DNA from: a virus
Taxonomy: Duplodnaviria > Heunggongvirae > Uroviricota > Caudoviricetes
DNA length: 27,448 nt
IMG/VR virus record: IMGVR_UViG_2558860288_000005
Strand: one strand, 5' to 3'
Shown: piece after piece, positions 2,966-24,140 of the stretch
How positions within the stretch are numbered: the first letter of the stretch is position 1
Layout: each line of letters begins with the position of its first letter
The notes under the pieces: model-generated
What the model saw: the letters and a program-made list of their open reading frames with translations, nothing else
What the model was told of the DNA's origin: nothing
The model's database searches: none
Translations under genes and position numbers: made by a program

Positions 2966-3217
2966 TCAAGTAAGATGACGTCTTGGTCTCGCTGATGCCT
3001 GGCGCTCAATCCAGCGATCAATTTCTTCCAGGTTGTAAAAGCATGGACTGTTATCCCATGGCATACCGTCATGAGCGACATGCTTATATTCCCTTCCTTC
3101 CATAAACGATTTTTCCCGGGCCTTTTTTAACGTACCTTTTTTTATTCCTTTCAGCGCAATTAACTGCTCTTCGGATACCCATTTGCCGGGAGAGACAATC
3201 ATGATTACTTCGCTCAT
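2966..3217 (-). CDS. Excisionase-like small DNA-binding protein (Xis)
   Basis: 83-aa ORF immediately upstream of and co-oriented with int; small basic protein typical of lambdoid excisionases. Confidence 0.65.
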   Translation of the reverse strand: MSEVIMIVSPGKWVSEEQLIALKGIKKGTLKKAREKSFMEGREYKHVAHDGMPWDNSPCFYNLEEIDRWIERQASARPRRHLT

Positions 3218-3289
3218 CGATTTCTTTATCTCTTACATCAGACGAGCGCCGGTTGCAGAATACCAGTCACAACCGGCGACAGTTGAACA

Positions 3290-5761
3290 TTAAGAATCAG
3301 CCTGACTCGGGATCAGTTTTTGCCAGATAACTGAAACGTATTTTGCCTGGTAACGGGCGTCATCAAGTGCATTATGGCGCTCACCTTCGAATGGAATAGC
3401 CGTTCTGGCATCGAAGTCTATGGCTTTCCCCAGCTCAACGATTGTGCGTACATCGCGATCGTTGTAGTAACGCCACGGGCAGGGGATCCCCTGCCGTTCG
3501 TATGAACGGCGCAAAATCGTGTTGTCGAAGTTGGCTCCATTTCCCCAAACCTGAACAAAAAATTCACCGGAGTTTTCGTCGATAAATTCTCGCAATTGTA
3601 ACAGTGCATCATCTAACGGGATTTCATCGGTCATAATGGCAGATTGCGCTTCGCGTGATTGCTTAAGCCACCATTTAATGGTGTCCCGATCAATGACTCC
3701 GCCAGCAGTTTCCAGATCGATAGTCTTACTAAATTCCGGTCCCATATCTCCGGTTTGCGGATCGAAAAATATTGCACCTATTGAGATGATCGGGGCATCA
3801 GGATTTTTTCCCATGGTTTCAAGGTCGATCATTAGATGGTCACACGTCCTGCTGGTGGATGTGATTTCGTGATGACCGTTCACCTTAATTGGGTGATCTG
3901 CCGTCTCGCCAGTTTCATTATCGCTATTGTGATGCTGATTGCCGCCAGTGTTCTCCTTGTGTGGATGTTCAGCGCCTTCCATTTCCTCCGGATCATCTTC
4001 CTGAACTTCAACCTGATACTCTTCATCGAATGTTTCTTGGTATGTTGCGTCGCCCATCACCGCGCCACAATCAGGGCAGTTGCCGCCGCCGGTCTGACCG
4101 CAGGCGGTGCAGACTTTTTCCACTTCCTGTTGCGCTACTGGTTCAGGCTGTTTCGTTTCTGGCTCGTTTTGTAACGCATTTGGACTGTTTTGTTCCGCTT
4201 TTTGGTAGTTCCGTTCCGATTCATGCTGGTTCTGGTTCACAGAATCGCGGGTCTGGAGCCCCTTAACCCATTTCGGATCATTCGGGTCACTAATCCCTTC
4301 AACAAATTCACCACGTGATGCAGCAAGCAACTTATCGGCGTCAGGCTGGCTGATATTGGCTGCCTGCATAATTTTGTTTACTTCGTCAGCGGTAACTTTT
4401 ATCGGCTCTGGTTGTTCTGAATCTTCAGCGGTATCTACATTTTGCGGTAAGCCCGTGTATGTGCCATTTTTTCGGGCAAAATATTCTTCTTTTGTGATTT
4501 CAGTGGCGCCAGCAGCCAGTGCCTTATCCAGACCAGAGAGTTTGTTTGCGCGACCGTATTTTTCTCCGTCCTTATCTGCGAAGAGGAAATAGAACGGCCC
4601 CTCACGCTCTACAGATGGTTCAGCTTCCGGCGCGGTTTCATTTTTTGGGATATCAGATACCTCAGTTTCCACTGCATCAGTTTGTGTTTCTGATGACTGG
4701 AGAACATCAACAGTGCCCAGGTCTGTTTCTTCATTCTCAAACACGCCCTTTGTCGTCAGGTATTCGCAGATATATTTGTTCAGTGCTACGGGATCTTTGT
4801 GAATGTCGATCGGACGCTCACGGACAAGGCCAAAAATAGTTTGGCGGTCGTAGCGAAGGGCATCAGGCTGTTTGCGCATTGATGCCGAGATACGCTTCCA
4901 GTCTTCGCGGTCGTTGTCGATAACTTCTTTTTTTGCCCAGCGATGGATGCTGCCGTCAATGTTTCCGGCATCCACATCACTAGGCCAGAGAGCGTAGGCC
5001 AGTTCGTCATCCAGTGTTTTCCATGTCTGCTTGTATTCGCGATGAATGGCAGCAATGACCGGGCTGATTTTTCCTGTTGAATTTTCAGTGTACTGTTGAT
5101 TGGCTCTGGCGCGGGCGAGATCAACAACAGACGTGTATTTTCCGGTTTCCTTGCGTTCACCTTCGCGACGTTTTTTCCAGATGCGCATCTCTGCCTGAAT
5201 TTCGGGCCATTTAGCACCAGGAATACATTTATGCTTAACCCACCCAATGGCGTGCAACTTAAGCTCCGGATACATGGCGTTAACTTCTGGCATTTTCATC
5301 AACGCTTCAACGATATGTCCGTCGAATGTTGCCATGTCTTCCTGCAACAATTCCTGTGCGCTAATAACCATATCAACGGTGATGTTTTCACATGTGTCGA
5401 ACTTAACCATGACAGCGTTCTGTACTTCAGGGGCCAGCTTGTCAAAAGTGACGTTCATCGGATCGGATTCAGTCTCAACCGGGACAAAAGAAGCAGACTC
5501 CTCATCCCAGCGGTTTTCCTGCATATATTCAGCATCCCATGAATCGAGGGCAGGGCGGGGTATGCCAGGTTTATCCTCGCAGACAATAAATTTATAAGCG
5601 CAGTCCTGAGCAGCCGGATAATGTTCCAGGAATTGCCAGTGAAATTTTGCTCGAGCACGGCGTTCGTCGCCAGCTTCAATGGCTGTGGCTACAGCCACAG
5701 CGCCTTCTTCCCTTGTTGCCAGTTCGTCAGGAATAGCGGCGCAAATAAAGACTTTACTCAT
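3290..5761 (-). CDS. ydfE: Large prophage exonuclease (full-length YdfE-like; often annotated exodeoxyribonuclease VIII-like) with central CxxC-x7-CxxC zinc ribbon and C-terminal DnaQ-type DEDDh exonuclease motifs
   Basis: Track ORF 3290..5797; likely start is the ATG at 5761 (MSKVFICAAIPD...), preceded by GAGGT. C-terminal motifs MIDLETMG, WGNGANFD, HNALDDARY match Exo I/II/III of DEDDh nucleases; zinc ribbon CTACGQTGGGNCPDCG; long acidic low-complexity linker. Confidence 0.75.
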   Translation of the reverse strand: MSKVFICAAIPDELATREEGAVAVATAIEAGDERRARAKFHWQFLEHYPAAQDCAYKFIVCEDKPGIPRPALDSWDAEYMQENRWDEESASFVPVETESDPMNVTFDKLAPEVQNAVMVKFDTCENITVDMVISAQELLQEDMATFDGHIVEALMKMPEVNAMYPELKLHAIGWVKHKCIPGAKWPEIQAEMRIWKKRREGERKETGKYTSVVDLARARANQQYTENSTGKISPVIAAIHREYKQTWKTLDDELAYALWPSDVDAGNIDGSIHRWAKKEVIDNDREDWKRISASMRKQPDALRYDRQTIFGLVRERPIDIHKDPVALNKYICEYLTTKGVFENEETDLGTVDVLQSSETQTDAVETEVSDIPKNETAPEAEPSVEREGPFYFLFADKDGEKYGRANKLSGLDKALAAGATEITKEEYFARKNGTYTGLPQNVDTAEDSEQPEPIKVTADEVNKIMQAANISQPDADKLLAASRGEFVEGISDPNDPKWVKGLQTRDSVNQNQHESERNYQKAEQNSPNALQNEPETKQPEPVAQQEVEKVCTACGQTGGGNCPDCGAVMGDATYQETFDEEYQVEVQEDDPEEMEGAEHPHKENTGGNQHHNSDNETGETADHPIKVNGHHEITSTSRTCDHLMIDLETMGKNPDAPIISIGAIFFDPQTGDMGPEFSKTIDLETAGGVIDRDTIKWWLKQSREAQSAIMTDEIPLDDALLQLREFIDENSGEFFVQVWGNGANFDNTILRRSYERQGIPCPWRYYNDRDVRTIVELGKAIDFDARTAIPFEGERHNALDDARYQAKYVSVIWQKLIPSQADS

Positions 5762-6399: not shown

Positions 6400-6457
6400 A
6401 AAAAGGGCGGCAGAGCAGTCACGGAGTAAAACTGATACCGCCAAACGTCACCAGAAA
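6400..6457 (-). ncRNA. dicF: DicF small RNA (about 53 nt plus terminator U-tract)
   Basis: Minus strand reads TTTCTGGTGACGTTTGGCGGTATCAGTTTTACTCCGTGACTGCTCTGCCGCCCTTTTT, matching DicF as I recall it, ending in a GC-rich stem plus U-run; sits between ydfC and dicB. Confidence 0.85.
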
Positions 6458-14763: not shown

Positions 14764-15787
<1,024 letters not shown>

Positions 15788-16149
15788 GGTAATATTAAAT
15801 CGGAACATTTACATCGCGGAATGTAAAATTTAAATAAAAAGGACTCTTCCATGAGCCAAAATTCCTGAAATCTTAAGGGTAAGATAAAAGGTCTTAATCA
15901 GAATGACACGTTTTATTAATAAATAAAGCTATTCTTTCATTGCTGTGTTTTTCTTTACAAAAGTAATCCTTGCTATGGGTGGTTAATCATGCGTTAATGG
16001 TGTTCTGGTTTGTTACAAATTTATCTGAAGCAGTCATTGTTATAATTTTATTATTTGTACCTCTTGAGATTTCCTTGTTGGTTTTTCTCTCTGATATTTT
16101 TTTTCGGACCATTCTGCCCAAGGGCTAATTTCTTCAAAAGGTAATAATT

Positions 16150-16362
16150 ATGTCTAACAAAATGACTGGTTTAGTGAAATGGTTTAACCCTGAAAAAGGT
16201 TTTGGTTTCATCACGCCGAAAGATGGCAGCAAAGATGTGTTTGTCCATTTCTCAGCAATTCAGAGCAACGATTTCAAAACATTAACTGAGAATCAGGAAG
16301 TTGAATTTGGTATTGAGAACGGACCTAAAGGTCCTGCCGCTGTTCATGTAGTGGCGCTTTGA
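16150..16362 (+). CDS. cspI: Cold-shock protein CspI
   Basis: 70-aa [48 protein letters not shown]... Confidence 0.9.
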
Positions 16363-16372
16363 GGTAGACAAT

Positions 16373-16561
16373 ATTACAAACCATATTCACTTTAGATGCC
16401 CGTGTTGTCATGGTTCCCAGTATAGAACATCATCTTTTGATGTTTCTGACATGAATCCTTTCGGGGCAAAATGTATCTTTTGTAAATCAATGATGATTAC
16501 ATTTGATAATATTTCACAATACTTAAATGCCAGCCGTCTGTCGTTGGATTTAAAAAAGTGA
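16373..16561 (+). CDS. Putative small zinc-ribbon ORF (CPCC...CIFC) downstream of cspI, YnfN-like; start codon uncertain
   Basis: Open frame 16352-16561 encodes ...HIHFRCPCCHGSQYRTSSFDVSDMNPFGAKCIFCKSMMITFDNISQYLNASRLSLDLKK; only in-frame ATG is at 16451, but GAGGT at 16360-16364 sits 8 nt before an ATT codon at 16373; intrinsic terminator right after the stop. Confidence 0.3.
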   Translation: MTNHIHFRCPCCHGSQYRTSSFDVSDMNPFGAKCIFCKSMMITFDNISQYLNASRLSLDLKK

Positions 16562-16568
16562 AAATGAA

Positions 16569-16589
16569 GGCTCCTTCGGGAGCTTTTTT
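16569..16589 (+). terminator. Intrinsic terminator after the cspI/zinc-ribbon unit
   Basis: GGCTCC-TTCG-GGAGC followed by TTTTTT. Confidence 0.55.
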
Positions 16590-16633
16590 GCTTGGTGTCT
16601 ATTCGATGGATACTCACATACTACGGTAACATC

Positions 16634-16864
16634 ATGAAAAAAATCATAGTTTTTTTTAACTCTGAACCAGCAGTGGTAGTGCCAGCGATGACTGGAGTTA
16701 ACACCATCATGCGTGAATATCCAAATGGCGAAAAAACACACCTTACTGTAATGGCCGCAGGGTTTCCATCTCTGACCGGAGATCATAAAGTCATTTATGT
16801 AGCCGCGGATCGACATGTTACTTCAGAAGAAATTCTGGAAGCAGCAATAAGGCTCTTGAGTTGA
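16634..16864 (+). CDS. Hypothetical small protein (76 aa)
   Basis: Internal ATG at 16634 of the 16592 track ORF (MKKIIVFFNSEPAVVVPAMTG...); no domain recognised. Confidence 0.45.
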   Translation: MKKIIVFFNSEPAVVVPAMTGVNTIMREYPNGEKTHLTVMAAGFPSLTGDHKVIYVAADRHVTSEEILEAAIRLLS

Positions 16865-17035
16865 TTTGATGCTATTGCATTGATAATTCAGGAAAATTCT
16901 CTTTGTCTGTTTGTGTAAAATTTAGACTATCGTATGTTGATTATTGCGATGTTTCATCTTATCTTTTACACGTTTGCACCATATAATCGACTTACTGTGT
17001 AACTGGAAAGTCATAACAGACTAAAAGAGGAAATG

Positions 17036-17209
17036 ATGAATATTGAAAACTTAAAAACAAAAGCAGAAGCAGATATTTCTGAATATATAACAAAAAAAAT
17101 TATTGAACTTAAGAAAAAGACCGGGAAAGAAGTTACCAGTATTCAGTTTACCGCACGGGAAAAAATGACGGGTCTTGAAAGCTATGATGTCAAGATTAAT
17201 TTAATCTGA
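17036..17209 (+). CDS. gnsB: GnsA/GnsB-family small protein (57 aa)
   Basis: Below the track cut-off; my translation gives MNIENLKTKAEADISEYITKKIIELKKKTGKEVTSIQFTAREKMTGLESYDVKINLI with AGAGG Shine-Dalgarno at 17026-17030. Confidence 0.8.
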   Translation: MNIENLKTKAEADISEYITKKIIELKKKTGKEVTSIQFTAREKMTGLESYDVKINLI

Positions 17210-17360
17210 TGTATTCAATAATAAAATTTATCCATAAACCTCGTTTTTACGGGGTTTTGTTATATTTGAATGGTTCCGAATATCTAAATCACAATTGTTG
17301 ATGGTTTTTATTAAACCAATGCAGTCCGGCTCAGGAGTGAGAGAAGCCGGACGTTATGGT

Positions 17361-17771
17361 TTAGCGTGGTAAGATCTGTGTAGTTTTCTGGATGCTTTCA
17401 GTAAATAGTAATGAATTATCAAAGGTATAGTAATATCTTTTTTGTTCGTGGATATTTGTAACCCACCGAAAAACTCCTGCTTTAGCAAGGTTTCTTCTGT
17501 ATTCCTGAAATGTGATCTCTCTGGATTTCAGCTTATTAGAGGTCGTTTCTATAAGATGCCTATCCTTTGAAAATTTGACAGACACAATGTTTTTTAGGCC
17601 CTTTAATAACACTGTATTATCATTTTTTAATACAATATGAACATTCTCTGTGGCTAAATAGTAAATGTAATGTGAGACATTGTGACGTTTTAGCTCAGAA
17701 TAAAACCATTGATAGTTTAAATCGTTTCGAACTTTATCAAATATTTGTTTAAAAATGACTACCTGATCCAT
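17361..17771 (-). CDS. ydfO: DUF1398-family protein YdfO (136 aa)
   Basis: Internal start [45 protein letters not shown]... within the 141-aa track ORF. Confidence 0.8.
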
Positions 17772-17828
17772 AGATAAACCTTCCATGTGATATGAGGGGG
17801 CGTAGTCTGCACGATTATCTAAATTGCT

Positions 17829-18062
17829 TCAATCTGGTCTGACCTGTTTTCTGAGCAATTCAGTAATGTCACTCTTTTCTTTGTTTGCTTCAGAAGAAAC
17901 TCTTTTTTCTGAGCACAGTCTCCGGCGGCAGGCTTCAATGACCCAGGCTGAGAAATTCCCGGACCCTTTTTGCTCAAGAGCGATGTTAATTTGTTCAATC
18001 ATTTGGTTAGGAAAGCGGATGTTGCGGGTTGTTGTTCTGCGGGTTCTGTTCTTCGTTGACAT
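17829..18062 (-). CDS. Small ribbon-helix-helix-like DNA-binding protein (YlcI/DUF3950-like) upstream of ydfO
   Basis: 77-aa ORF; basic N-terminus (MSTKNRTRRTTTRNIRFP) then an RHH-like segment NQMIEQINIALEQKGSGNFSAWVIEACRRRL; co-oriented with ydfO, 57 bp upstream of it. Confidence 0.5.
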   Translation of the reverse strand: MSTKNRTRRTTTRNIRFPNQMIEQINIALEQKGSGNFSAWVIEACRRRLCSEKRVSSEANKEKSDITELLRKQVRPD

Positions 18063-18229
18063 GAGGTTGCCCCGTATTCAGTGTCGCTGATTTGTATTGT
18101 CTGAAGTTGTTTTTACGTTAAGTTGATGCAGATCAATTAATATGATACCTGCGTCATAATTGATTATTTGACGTGGTTTGATGGCGTAGATGCACGTTGT
18201 GACATGCAGATGATAATTATTATCATTTT

Positions 18230-18440
18230 GCGGGTCCTTTCCGGCGATCCGACAGGTTACGGGGCGGCGACCTCGCGGGTTTTCGCTATTTATGAAAATT
18301 TTCCGGTTTAAGGCATTTCCGTTCTTCTTCGTCGTAACTTAATGTTTTTATTTAAAATACCCCCTGAAAAGAAAGGAAACGACAGGTGCTGAAAACGAGC
18401 TTTTGGGCCTCTGTCGTTTCCTTTCTCTGTTTTTGGCCGT
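18230..18440 (+). other. Lambda-type cos region: cosN 12-nt cohesive-end sequence GGGCGGCGACCT at 18262-18273, with cosQ/cosB flanks
   Basis: ...CGACAGGTTACG|GGGCGGCGACCT|CGCGGGTTTTCGCTATTTATGAAAATTTTCCGG... matches the lambda right-end/left-end junction as I recall it, immediately upstream of the Nu1 gene. Confidence 0.8.
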
Positions 18441-18450
18441 GGAATGAACA

Positions 18451-18996
18451 ATGGAAGTCAACAAAAAGCAGCTGGCTGACATTTTCGGTGCGAGTATCCG
18501 TACCATTCAGAACTGGCAGGAACAGGGAATGCCCGTTCTGCGAGGCGGTGGCAAGGGTAATGAGGTGCTTTATGACTCTGCCGCCGTTATAAGATGGTAT
18601 GCCGAAAGGGATGCTGAAATTGAGAACGAAAAGCTGCGCCGGGAAGTTGAAGAACTGCGGCAGGCCAGCGAGACAGATCTCCAGCCAGGGACTATTGAGT
18701 ACGAACGCCATCGACTTACGCGTGCGCAGGCCGACGCACAGGAGCTGAAAAATGCCAGAGACTCCGCTGAAGTGGTGGAAACCGCATTCTGTACTTTCGT
18801 GCTGTCGCGGATCGCAGGTGAAATTGCCAGTATTCTCGACGGGATCCCCCTGTCGGTGCAGCGGCGTTTTCCGGAACTGGAAAACCGACATGTTGATTTC
18901 CTGAAACGGGATATCATCAAAGCCATGAACAAAGCAGCCGCGCTGGATGAACTGATACCGGGGTTGCTGAGTGAATATATCGAACAGTCAGGTTAA
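18451..18996 (+). CDS. nohA: Terminase small subunit (lambda Nu1-type), essentially lambda-identical
   Basis: 181-aa ORF MEVNKKQLADIFGASIRTIQNWQEQGMPVLRGGGKGNEVLYDSAAV... with winged-HTH N-terminus. Confidence 0.9.
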   Translation: MEVNKKQLADIFGASIRTIQNWQEQGMPVLRGGGKGNEVLYDSAAVIRWYAERDAEIENEKLRREVEELRQASETDLQPGTIEYERHRLTRAQADAQELKNARDSAEVVETAFCTFVLSRIAGEIASILDGIPLSVQRRFPELENRHVDFLKRDIIKAMNKAAALDELIPGLLSEYIEQSG

Positions 18997-20455
18997 CAGG
19001 CTGCGGCATTTTGTCCGCGCCGGGCTTCGCTCACTGTTCAGGCCGGAGCCACAGACCGCCGTTGAATGGGCGGATGCTAATTACTATCTCCCGAAAGAAT
19101 CCGCATACCAGGAAGGGCGCTGGGAAACACTGCCCTTTCAGCGGGCCATCATGAATGCGATGGGCAGCGACTACATCCGTGAGGTGAATGTGGTGAAGTC
19201 TGCCCGTGTCGGTTATTCCAAAATGCTGCTGGGTGTTTATGCCTACTTTATAGAGCATAAGCAGCGCAACACCCTTATCTGGTTGCCGACGGATGGTGAT
19301 GCCGAGAACTTTATGAAAACCCACGTTGAGCCGACCATCCGCGATATTCCGTCGCTGCTGGCGCTGGCTCCGTGGTATGGCAAAAAGCACCGGGATAACA
19401 CGCTCACTATGAAGCGTTTTTCCAATGGTCGTGGCTTCTGGTGCCTGGGCGGTAAAGCGGCAAAAAACTACCGTGAAAAGTCGGTGGATGTGGCGGGTTA
19501 TGATGAACTTGCTGCCTTTGATGAGGATATTGAACAGGAAGGCTCTCCGACGTTCCTTGGCGACAAACGTATTGAAGGCTCGGTCTGGCCAAAGTCCATC
19601 CGTGGCTCCACGCCCAAAGTGAGAGGCACCTGCCAGATTGAGCGTGCAGCCAGTGAATCCCTGCATTTTATGCGTTTTCATGTTGCCTGCCCGCACTGCG
19701 GGGAGGAGCAGTATCTTAAATTTGGCGACAAAGAGACGCCGTTTGGCCTCAAATGGACGCCGGATGACCCCTCCAGCGTGTTTTATCTCTGCGAGCATAA
19801 TGCCTGCGTCATCCGCCAGCAGGAGCTGGACTTTACTGATGCCCGTTATATCTGCGAAAAGACCGGGATCTGGACCCGTGATGGCATTCTCTGGTTTTCG
19901 TCATCCGGTGAAGAGATTGAGCCGCCGGACAGTGTGACCTTTCACATCTGGACGGCGTACAGCCCGTTCACCACCTGGGTGCAGATTGTCAAAGACTGGA
20001 TGAAGACGAAAGGGGATACGGGAAAACGTAAAACCTTCGTGAACACCACGCTCGGTGAGACATGGGAAGCGAAAATCGGCGAACGTCCGGATGCTGAGGT
20101 GATGGCGGAGCGGAAAGAGCATTATTCAGCGCCCGTTCCTGACCGTGTGGCTTACCTGACCGCCGGTATCGACTCCCAGCTGGACCGCTACGAAATGCGC
20201 GTATGGGGATGGGGGCCGGGTGAGGAAAGCTGGCTGATTGACCGGCAGATTATTATGGGTCGCCACGACGATGAACAGACGCTGCTGCGTGTGGATGAGG
20301 CCATCAATAAAACCTATACCCGCCGGAATGGTGCAGAAATGTCGGTATCCCGTATCTGCTGGGATACTGGCGGGATTGACCCGACCATTGTGTATGAACG
20401 CTCGAAAAAACATGGGCTGTTCCGGGTGATCCCCATTAAAGGGGCATCCGTCTAA
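18971..20455 (+). pseudogene. A: Terminase large subunit (lambda gpA), 5' portion only (494 codons); ends ...RVIPIKGASV then a stop created at an inversion junction
   Basis: N-terminal sequence MNISNSQVNRLRHFVRAGLRSLFRPEPQTAVEWADANYYLPK... recognised as lambda A; the missing C-terminus lies inverted at 22565-23008. Confidence 0.85.

Positions 20456-20763: not shown

Positions 20764-20783
<20 letters not shown>
20454..20783 (-). pseudogene. C: Head protease/scaffold gpC, 5' fragment (about 110 codons), inverted and truncated
   Basis: Minus-strand ...VTAELRNLPHIASMAFNEPLMLEPAYARVFFCALAGQLGIS...GMTGYNGI matches the lambda C N-terminus; start overlaps the B stop by about 20 nt as in lambda; similarity ends at the junction near 20454. 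Confidence 0.8.
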
Positions 20784-23008
<2,225 letters not shown>

Positions 23009-23565: not shown

Positions 23566-24140
23566 TGGCATTCAGAATGAGTGAACAACCACGGACCATA
23601 AAAATTTATAATCTGCTGGCCGGAACTAATGAATTTATTGGTGAAGGTGATGCATATATTCCGCCTCATACAGGTCTGCCAGCAAACAGTACCGATATTG
23701 CACCGCCAGATATTCCGGCTGGCTTCGTGGCTGTTTTCAACAGTGATGAGTCATCGTGGCATCTCGTTGAAGATCATCGGGGTAAAACGGTTTATGACGT
23801 GGCTTCCGGCGACGCGTTATTTATTTCTGAACTCGGTCTGTTACCGGAAAATGTTACCTGGTTATCGCCGGAAGGGGAGTTTCAGAAGTGGAACGGCACA
23901 GCCTGGGTGAAGGATACGGAAGCAGAAAAACTGTTCCGGATCCGGGAGGCGGAAGAAACAAAAAACAACCTGATGCAGGTAGCCAGTGAGCATATTGCGC
24001 CGCTTCAGGATGCTGCAGATCTGGAAATTGCAACGGAGGAAGAAATCTCGTTGCTGGAAGCATGGAAAAAGTATCGGGTATTGCTGAACCGTGTTGATAC
24101 GTCAACTGCACAGGATATTGAATGGCCAGCACTGCCGTAG
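23565..24140 (+). CDS. tfaQ: Tail fibre assembly protein (Tfa)
   Basis: 191-aa [61 protein letters not shown]...; start overlaps the tail-fibre stop. Confidence 0.85.

Follow-up and report, generated by a model that had tools for sequence, protein, structure and literature searches.

The closest described counterparts of the locus analysed here are ynfO (b4533) and ydfO (b1549) of the Qin prophage of Escherichia coli K-12. They are the same genes as those described below, with no material difference, and were already catalogued. Homologous genes are found in DLP12 (ylcI-ybcW-ybcV) and at the right end of lambda. The N-terminal 54 residues of the DUF3950 protein encoded there are about 98% identical to those of YnfO, and the DUF1398 protein (YbcV, lambdap78) is 79% identical to YdfO and is encoded in the same orientation next to cos. 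Unlike our locus, DLP12 and lambda carry a 68-aa gene on the opposite strand (ybcW/lambdap79) between the two genes, which are parted by about 530 bp, and the YnfO tail is also different. The reference annotation of lambda omits its DUF3950 ORF (48142-48303).

Arc and Mnt of P22 (PF03869) are, like YnfO, small phage proteins with an N-[IL]-R-[FWM]-P motif, and P22 immI sits inside the late region, as ynfO does. In YnfO the arm is longer and more basic than in Arc and Mnt and the tail varies, and no operator, target promoter or antirepressor partner to set beside theirs was found for it. Type II toxin-antitoxin systems of the ribbon-helix-helix (RHH) kind, such as RelBE in the same prophage, share with our locus the order of a small RHH gene (a putative one in ynfO) and a larger second gene on one strand. 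Unlike such systems, ynfO and ydfO are not co-inherited, they are 57 bp apart with a separate ribosome-binding site for ydfO, and YdfO is unlike any toxin family. The lambdoid morons bor and lom offer another likeness, as AT-rich inserts between conserved modules that run antisense to the late operon and vary among related phages. Like morons, the locus is dispensable for lytic growth, as shown for lambda gp78 in a CRISPRi map (PMC10695390). The position of DUF3950 is, however, far more constant than that of typical cargo and, unlike for bor and lom, no promoter has been demonstrated and no host phenotype is known for ynfO or ydfO. A literature search gave no paper that assigns a function to ynfO, ylcI, ydfO or ybcV, in agreement with an earlier note on this DNA, which had called both genes functionally uncharacterised.

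The window, that is, the whole stretch of 27,448 nucleotides that was analysed, is a Qin-like cryptic lambdoid prophage. It contains DicF, two cspA-type thermoregulators, the antiterminator Q and a Pin-type invertase, and it is rearranged, with gpA truncated and the portal gene inverted. Compared with K-12 Qin, the window has its own rearrangements downstream of cos. The two genes and their neighbours are as follows.

15290-15787, plus strand: Rz-like gene (DUF2514).
16150-16362, plus strand: cspI.
17033-17209, plus strand: gnsB.
17361-17771, minus strand: ydfO, encoding a soluble, basic 136-aa DUF1398 protein with an (alpha-alpha-beta-beta-beta)x2 orphan fold.
17829-18062, minus strand: ynfO, a 77-aa ORF (protein start MSTKNRTRRTTTRN) with a basic N-terminal arm, a putative Arc-like RHH core and a variable tail.
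17901-18062, minus strand: codons 1-54 of ynfO, the conserved part and the sole stretch common to all family members.
18262-18273, plus strand: cosN cohesive-end sequence GGGCGGCGACCT, read directly from the sequence.
18451-18996, plus strand: Nu1 (Pfam Phage_Nu1, E 2.4e-101).
18971-20455, plus strand: terminase gpA, truncated.

The sequence GGGCGGCGACCT, which is that of the lambda cohesive end, lies 200 bp upstream of the ynfO start. The ynfO stop codon is separated by 57 bp from the ATG of ydfO. Both genes are on the minus strand, antisense to the flanking lysis and packaging genes (Rz-like, cspI, gnsB, Nu1 and gpA, all on the plus strand). The earlier note had described this pair, with its lengths, gap and orientation opposite to the late and packaging genes, exactly as found here. 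It had also placed the pair at an accessory position near cos, which agrees with the GC content of 31-39% across 15700-17800, against 50-55% in the flanking genes, with the antisense genes and with the content of the Rz-cos interval, which varies among phages.

PGAP gives the names ynfO and ydfO to identical genes in Qin prophages, and the 1151 bp spanning the two genes are shared at 100% identity by phage PhiR42_1 and by Qin prophages in many genomes of E. coli. Of 5426 complete E. coli genomes, 4700 have copies related to this region, and the directly adjacent Qin-type pair was found in at least 2633 complete genomes. Compared with diverged copies, ynfO and ydfO showed pN/pS values of 0.15-0.24 (0.15-0.22 for ynfO against Stx-phage copies), which points to purifying selection. 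Because of these low values, of the Pfam and NCBIfam matches and of the identity to PDB 2HH8 described below, we regard both as real genes and not as chance ORFs. The result thus re-identifies two named genes, one of which has a solved structure.

YnfO belongs to DUF3950 (PF13132, E 2.7e-21, 75.6 bits against a Pfam cut-off of 25) and also scored above the cut-off of the NCBIfam family YlcI_YnfO_N (NF041551, 36.6 bits against 30). When 18 tail variants of DUF3950 were aligned, residues 1-49 were nearly invariant, with 34 invariant columns, and beyond about residue 54 the tails were unrelated between members. The AlphaFold model of YnfO has helices at residues 19-32 and 34-72, with a pLDDT of about 80 over residues 21-50. 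The core of YnfO could be aligned by eye, and free of gaps, with P22 Arc and Mnt. In this alignment N14-I-R-F-P18 of YnfO corresponds to N11-L-R-W-P15 of Arc, the distance from the motif Asn to the loop Gly is 20 residues in all three proteins, a Ser opens the second helix, and the core hydrophobic positions of YnfO are in register with Arc (YnfO 11-33 and Arc 8-30).

The Arc sequence used as query was verified through its database matches, which were all PF03869. Comparison of the YnfO and Arc profiles with hhalign returned the expected register as a weak match (P 0.0089, probability 4.5%); the match of trimmed YnfO to Arc was also weak (P 0.0049, probability 7%), and 7 of 300 column shuffles reached the observed Arc score. 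No RHH family was matched with HMMER among PDB sequences and Pfam at E up to 10, using either the single sequence or the profile. The RHH-like nature that the earlier note had given to the 77-aa protein agrees with the Arc register, for which the statistical support is weak (P 0.005-0.009, 7/300 shuffles, no HMMER match). Judging from the aligned motif and spacing, YnfO is probably a small Arc-like DNA-binding protein with a putative RHH fold. A tblastn match of YnfO to a Pasteurella phage was rejected as spurious because it lies on the opposite strand of an annotated repressor gene.

The identification of the second gene as the DUF1398 gene ydfO was confirmed. The protein matches PF07166 over all of the profile (positions 1-119 of 119, E 1.5e-46, 157.7 bits against a cut-off of 22), is identical at 135 of 136 residues to PDB 2HH8 ('hypothetical protein ydfO') and has the fold of that structure. 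It is hydrophilic and basic, with a pI of 9.75, a net charge of +9 and no membrane segment. An internal duplication is seen in the model and is undetectable in the sequence. A BFVD fold search with YdfO gave nothing at E below 0.001, and in the fold comparison no toxin fold resembled YdfO, whose fold is an orphan. YdfO probably acts by binding protein or nucleic acid rather than by catalysis. DUF1398 has inherited the names 'putative envelope protein' and 'head protein' (PHROG 413), both of which are unsupported. An alternative reading of ydfO from an upstream ATG at 17786 would give 141 aa. The 136-aa start is favoured because the Shine-Dalgarno-like GGAAGG lies 7 nt ahead of the ATG at 17771 and because K-12 YdfO has 136 aa; the same GGAAGG supports independent initiation of ydfO translation.

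The two genes lie in different blocks of the phage mosaic. Positions 17342-17845, which hold ydfO and 75 bp upstream of it including the PdhR box described below, align to the lambda gp78 block (84%), and positions 17900-18261, which hold ynfO codons 1-54 and the cos-proximal DNA, align to the lambda right end (95%). The 54 bp between these two blocks are not common to lambda. In Stx-type loci the homology to ynfO begins exactly at the ATG, and the region upstream is not common to them. The GC content is 31.6% in ydfO versus 49% in the ynfO core. The YnfO tail after residue 54 is encoded by the mosaic segment that happens to adjoin the core, and a tail supplied by neighbouring DNA cannot be a conserved toxin-binding segment.

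The co-inheritance of DUF3950 and DUF1398 was followed in viral loci drawn from the best 80 IMG/VR contigs for each of five DUF3950 tail variants, from which we kept 218 distinct loci flanked by at least 1.5 kb on either side. DUF1398 was present downstream of DUF3950 in 88 of these loci and absent from 130. When both genes were present they were directly adjacent in 86 of 88 cases, with p79 between them in the other 2. A packaging gene was found divergently upstream of DUF3950 in 211 of the 218 loci (Nu1 in 172, HK97-like HNH/TerS in 39). In the loci without DUF1398, the next gene to DUF3950 was usually Rz/Rz1 on the other strand, and mostly nothing co-oriented followed. Since a packaging gene accompanies DUF3950 in 211 loci and DUF1398 in 88, what stays constant next to DUF3950 is the packaging-module end of the late region, and not DUF1398.

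The same picture emerged from other collections. DUF3950 was present in 155 records of the phage collection, against 43 for DUF1398. Stx-type phages, YYZ-2008 for example, have DUF3950 by itself in the interval from Rz to HNH-TerS-TerL, and DUF1398 was undetectable in them. The ynfO core was counted 9861 times in the 5426 complete E. coli genomes, 4184 of which carry it, some in as many as 12 copies. In E. coli lambdoid phages YnfO is probably an almost constant part of the right end. In a scan of one genome per species with a 6-sequence DUF1398 alignment as query, distant DUF1398 genes with 32-49% identity were found in E. coli (ycgX), Citrobacter, Kluyvera, Pseudocitrobacter, Raoultella and Salmonella diarizonae, and DUF3950 was not found within 4 kb of any of them. 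Many non-enterobacterial 'hosts' of DUF1398 were set aside as lambda DNA contamination or a 3.5-kb sequencing control. The earlier note had named a lack of conserved co-occurrence as a result that would refute its two-gene module, and co-occurrence was mostly not conserved, in either direction.

The regulatory elements found around the two genes are the following.

17324-17352, minus strand: stable hairpin directly after the ydfO stop codon (-20.3 kcal/mol, z -5.1; 0 of 200 shuffles as stable).
17779-17784, minus strand: Shine-Dalgarno-like GGAAGG, 7 nt before the ydfO ATG at 17771, read directly from the sequence.
17814-17819, minus strand: GATAAT, candidate -10 hexamer of a weak ydfO promoter, from a relaxed consensus scan (8/12 matches); its -35 region overlaps the PdhR box.
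17832-17848, no strand assigned: PdhR-box-like palindrome ATCTGGTCTGACCTGTT, in the last ynfO codons and 64-73 bp upstream of ydfO.
18063-18261, no strand assigned: DNA between the ynfO start and the right cohesive end, with 95% identity to the right end of lambda.
18132-18164, no strand assigned: inverted repeat (8-bp) ATCAATTA-N17-TAATTGAT, from a repeat search, conserved in lambda.
18210-18226, no strand assigned: 17-bp palindrome ATGATAAT-T-ATTATCAT, from a repeat search, conserved in lambda.
18232-18238, no strand assigned: cosQ-like GGGTCCT.

The PdhR-box core TGGTCTGACC occurs once in the window, versus 0.04 expected. It is also present 65-74 bp upstream of ybcV in DLP12, the box being equidistant from the DUF1398 start in DLP12 and in the window. 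By genomic SELEX, PdhR sites were found at both the ydfO and the ybcV loci, and ybcV mRNA was down 10-fold in a pdhR mutant (PMC7660256). The GATAAT candidate falls within the block conserved with lambda gp78 (17342-17845), and ydfO may have its own PdhR-dependent promoter there. Because ydfO has its own ribosome-binding site and a conserved upstream segment with a PdhR box, it is probably controlled by host metabolism through PdhR, the direct data being those for its homologue ybcV. The hairpin after ydfO, which has no clean U-tract, may be where the leftward transcript ends or is terminated. No terminator was predicted in the ynfO-ydfO spacer, so that in the Qin arrangement transcription could run on from ynfO into ydfO. 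Promoter scans upstream of ynfO gave no strong sigma-70 promoter, only weak promoter-like sites. The repeats at 18132-18164 and 18210-18226 are candidate operator repeats, and they are absent from Stx-type DUF3950 loci.

On balance, we lean towards reading ynfO and ydfO as two adjacent, independently mobile accessory genes of a Qin-type prophage and not as one two-component system. YnfO would be a DNA-binding protein of the Arc/MetJ ribbon-helix-helix type, small and dimeric, with its basic arm and beta-strand (residues 1-18) reading the DNA and its two helices (19-32 and about 36-49) making up the dimer core. What constantly accompanies YnfO is the right end of the late region, where the packaging module adjoins, rather than YdfO. 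That ynfO is read against late transcription suggests that it is expressed in the lysogen or before late transcription. YdfO would be separate cargo: soluble, basic and cytoplasmic, its fold an orphan, and showing no signature of a catalyst or toxin.

A looser link, in which YnfO represses whatever gene follows it, in Qin ydfO as part of a ynfO-ydfO operon, seems to us rather unlikely. The direct adjacency in 86 of 88 viral loci with both genes and the lack of a predicted terminator between them fit such a pairing. So does a rare 233-aa YnfO-YdfO fusion, created on 6 contigs by a single TGA-to-TGG change, from which it follows that the spacer is open in frame; as proof of a functional link this fusion was rejected, since its cluster consists mostly of ordinary YdfO. 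Nothing co-oriented follows DUF3950, however, in most loci without DUF1398, and Rz/Rz1 comes next on the opposite strand. In lambda the ydfO homologue keeps its own upstream block, with YnfO 530 bp off across another gene. The region upstream of ynfO also differs between lambda-type and Stx-type loci, so that there is no conserved operator.

It is unlikely that YnfO has a core phage function at the end of the late region, in transcription through cos or as a packaging aid, with YdfO as unrelated cargo. The distribution of DUF3950 speaks for such a function: 211 of 218 loci have it divergently beside packaging genes, which belong to two unrelated terminase types; lambda itself carries it, as do 4184 of 5426 E. 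coli genomes (up to 12 copies each); and its first 50 residues hardly vary. Yet one near-invariant DNA-binding domain is unlikely to recognise both lambda-like and HK97-like cos regions, lambda packaging has been reconstituted from defined components without a YnfO-like factor, and no phenotype has been reported.

We hold equally doubtful the bolder proposal that DUF3950 is an unrecognised Arc-like repressor, standard in E. coli lambdoid phages including lambda and always set against the late operon next to the packaging module, which would control lysogen cargo (ydfO) or transcription through cos. YdfO, basic and pseudo-dimeric with its orphan fold, could then be an effector that binds nucleic acid or protein and is directed at the host or at incoming phages. 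If YnfO truly is a DNA-binding repressor, an unstudied regulator would lie 200 bp from cos in lambda and in most E. coli lambdoid prophages, a modest but genuine gap in our knowledge of the best-known phage.

We consider it very improbable that the pair is a toxin-antitoxin or anti-phage module, to which the earlier note had likened its layout, with the small RHH protein acting as repressor and/or neutraliser of a harmful YdfO. The order of the genes is suggestive, a small, basic, putative DNA-binding gene being followed after 57 bp by a larger co-oriented one with no predicted terminator, in the accessory-gene interval of lambdoid prophages. Furthermore, ydfO was without insertions in one TraDIS study (PMC5821084), but the table of that study lists it as essential by TraDIS only, and our guess is that the signal is an artefact of a multi-copy, AT-rich gene. 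Such a pair is unlikely because each gene moves around independently: co-occurrence is conserved in neither direction, an opposite-strand gene splits the pair in lambda and DLP12, and ydfO, with its own ribosome-binding site and upstream block, is a separate homology block. The YnfO tail, usually the toxin-binding part in RHH antitoxins, is swapped entirely between loci whose DUF1398 proteins are 79% identical. PADLOC-DB 2.0 gave no family at E up to 1 for YnfO, YdfO, GnsB or YnfN, and YdfO has no toxin-like fold. That YdfO was made alone for the NMR structure 2HH8 would also argue against strong toxicity. The layout alone is no reason to count ynfO-ydfO as a toxin-antitoxin or defence candidate.

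It is scarcely credible that the two ORFs are decaying leftovers in a cryptic prophage that now serve no function, since, for all the rearrangement of the window prophage with its truncated terminase and inverted portal genes, both are intact with pN/pS of 0.15-0.24 and both are retained in functional phages such as lambda and PhiR42_1.

Published observations on these genes call for some caution. The ydfO RNA was found to rise after ionic-liquid shock (PMC4077768), and induction of ydfO on DicC overexpression has been reported; both rises could be antisense late transcription if the assays were not strand-specific. The sole published phenotype of YdfO, oxidative-stress resistance on overexpression (PMC4077768), is a mix-up with YfdO of CPS-53 and needs correction: Wang et al. 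2010, the source of the claim, reports YfdO of CPS-53 and nowhere mentions ydfO. A similar slip between yfdO and ydfO was seen in PMC9181523. The ylcI 'mutations' listed in evolution studies give no functional information and possibly come from mis-mapping between the paralogues ylcI and ynfO.

The gene lambdap79, which is absent from the window, is the reported trigger of the Vulcan NADase defence, and phages that escape Vulcan lose it by recombining with Qin (bioRxiv 10.64898/2026.09.04.749371). These recombinants thereby gain the arrangement seen in the window.

The gene ynfO, which encodes the 77-aa DUF3950 protein of the window, has a counterpart in phage lambda (NC_001416.1), where positions 48142-48303 on the minus strand correspond to window 17901-18062. 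The DUF3950 ORF of lambda is 64 aa long and its residues 1-54 are 98% identical to YnfO. No feature covers this ORF in the annotation of the reference lambda record, unlike in other lambda-like records, where it is annotated. Both lambda and the prophage DLP12 carry a 68-aa gene between their DUF3950 and DUF1398 genes:

L002 (lambda locus) 3216-3422, plus strand: p79
L006 (DLP12 locus) 3509-3715, minus strand: ybcW

The window lacks this p79/ybcW gene at the corresponding place, 17846-17899. According to a 2026 preprint, it is p79 that activates Vulcan, an NADase defence, and phages escaping Vulcan have lost p79 via recombination with Qin (bioRxiv 10.64898/2026.09.04.749371).

In the window, the 141-aa reading frame of ydfO is in frame with the ynfO stop, and the spacer from that stop to the upstream ATG of ydfO (17786-17831) is open in this frame. 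A TGA-to-TGG variant, found on 6 contigs, gives a 233-aa YnfO-YdfO fusion (protein record P0122).

Two repeats stand immediately left of a cosQ-like GGGTCCT, and both are kept in lambda:

18132-18164: inverted repeat ATCAATTA-N17-TAATTGAT
within 18199-18226: palindrome ATGATAAT-T-ATTATCAT

The palindrome is overlapped by a promoter-like site on the plus strand, GTGACA-16-TATCAT (10/12 matches), which is oriented towards cos and Nu1.

DUF1398 proteins, namely that of ydfO (window 17361-17771) and its phage homologues, are labelled 'head protein' in PHROG 413 and RefSeq phage records, with 'putative envelope protein' as an alternative label. Both labels look like propagated errors, since YdfO is a basic, soluble protein without a membrane segment and the DUF1398 gene is non-essential in lambda. 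The sole phenotype ascribed to YdfO, oxidative-stress resistance, is really that of YfdO of prophage CPS-53 (PMC4077768 citing PMC3105296); ydfO is mentioned nowhere in the cited source, PMC3105296. The names yfdO and ydfO are swapped in a second paper too (PMC9181523).

The neighbours of chromosomal DUF1398 paralogues differ from those of the prophage copies. E. coli ycgX is found downstream of bluR, a gene for a MerR-type regulator, at a distance of 220 bp (L045 3049-3780 and 4001-4405). Beside the Kluyvera-type copies, a divergent 74-aa ORF with no Pfam match is conserved (L050, L062 and L068, around 3500-3830, minus strand). Where DUF3950 occurs without DUF1398, the place of ydfO in the Rz-cos interval is often taken by a 148-aa ORF (MITFVYYLVF...AERWAKVM...), located on the opposite strand 85-531 bp downstream of DUF3950 in L235 and 46 other such loci. 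Its product may resemble PerC/Pch-type regulators.

An AT-rich cargo block on the plus strand (window 15800-17300) includes small ORFs matching ynfQ/ynfR/ynfN. The block also includes cspI and gnsB, with these positions:

16004-16389, plus strand: cspA-type thermoregulator, together with cspI
17033-17209, plus strand: gnsB, Pfam heading 'GnsA/GnsB toxin of a toxin-antitoxin system'

The better candidate is gnsB, if the interval holds any toxin-antitoxin-like gene.

The terminase gpA gene (window 18971-20455, plus strand) ends after 494 aa, inside the nuclease domain, and the lambda-family portal gene after it (20764-22365, minus strand) is on the opposite strand. The packaging region is therefore inverted or otherwise rearranged, which fits a cryptic prophage. 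Two RNAs matched in Rfam are further marks of a Qin-type prophage:

6405-6456, minus strand: DicF RNA
23908-24106, plus strand: IS009 RNA

In the genome scan (loci L008-L047), the lambda-type DUF3950/DUF1398 region was matched in dozens of 'genomes' from unrelated bacteria, including Pseudomonas, Bacillus relatives, Flavobacterium and candidate phyla; the matching contigs are either 3.5 kb or about 48 kb long. These contigs are almost certainly lambda control DNA remaining in the assemblies.
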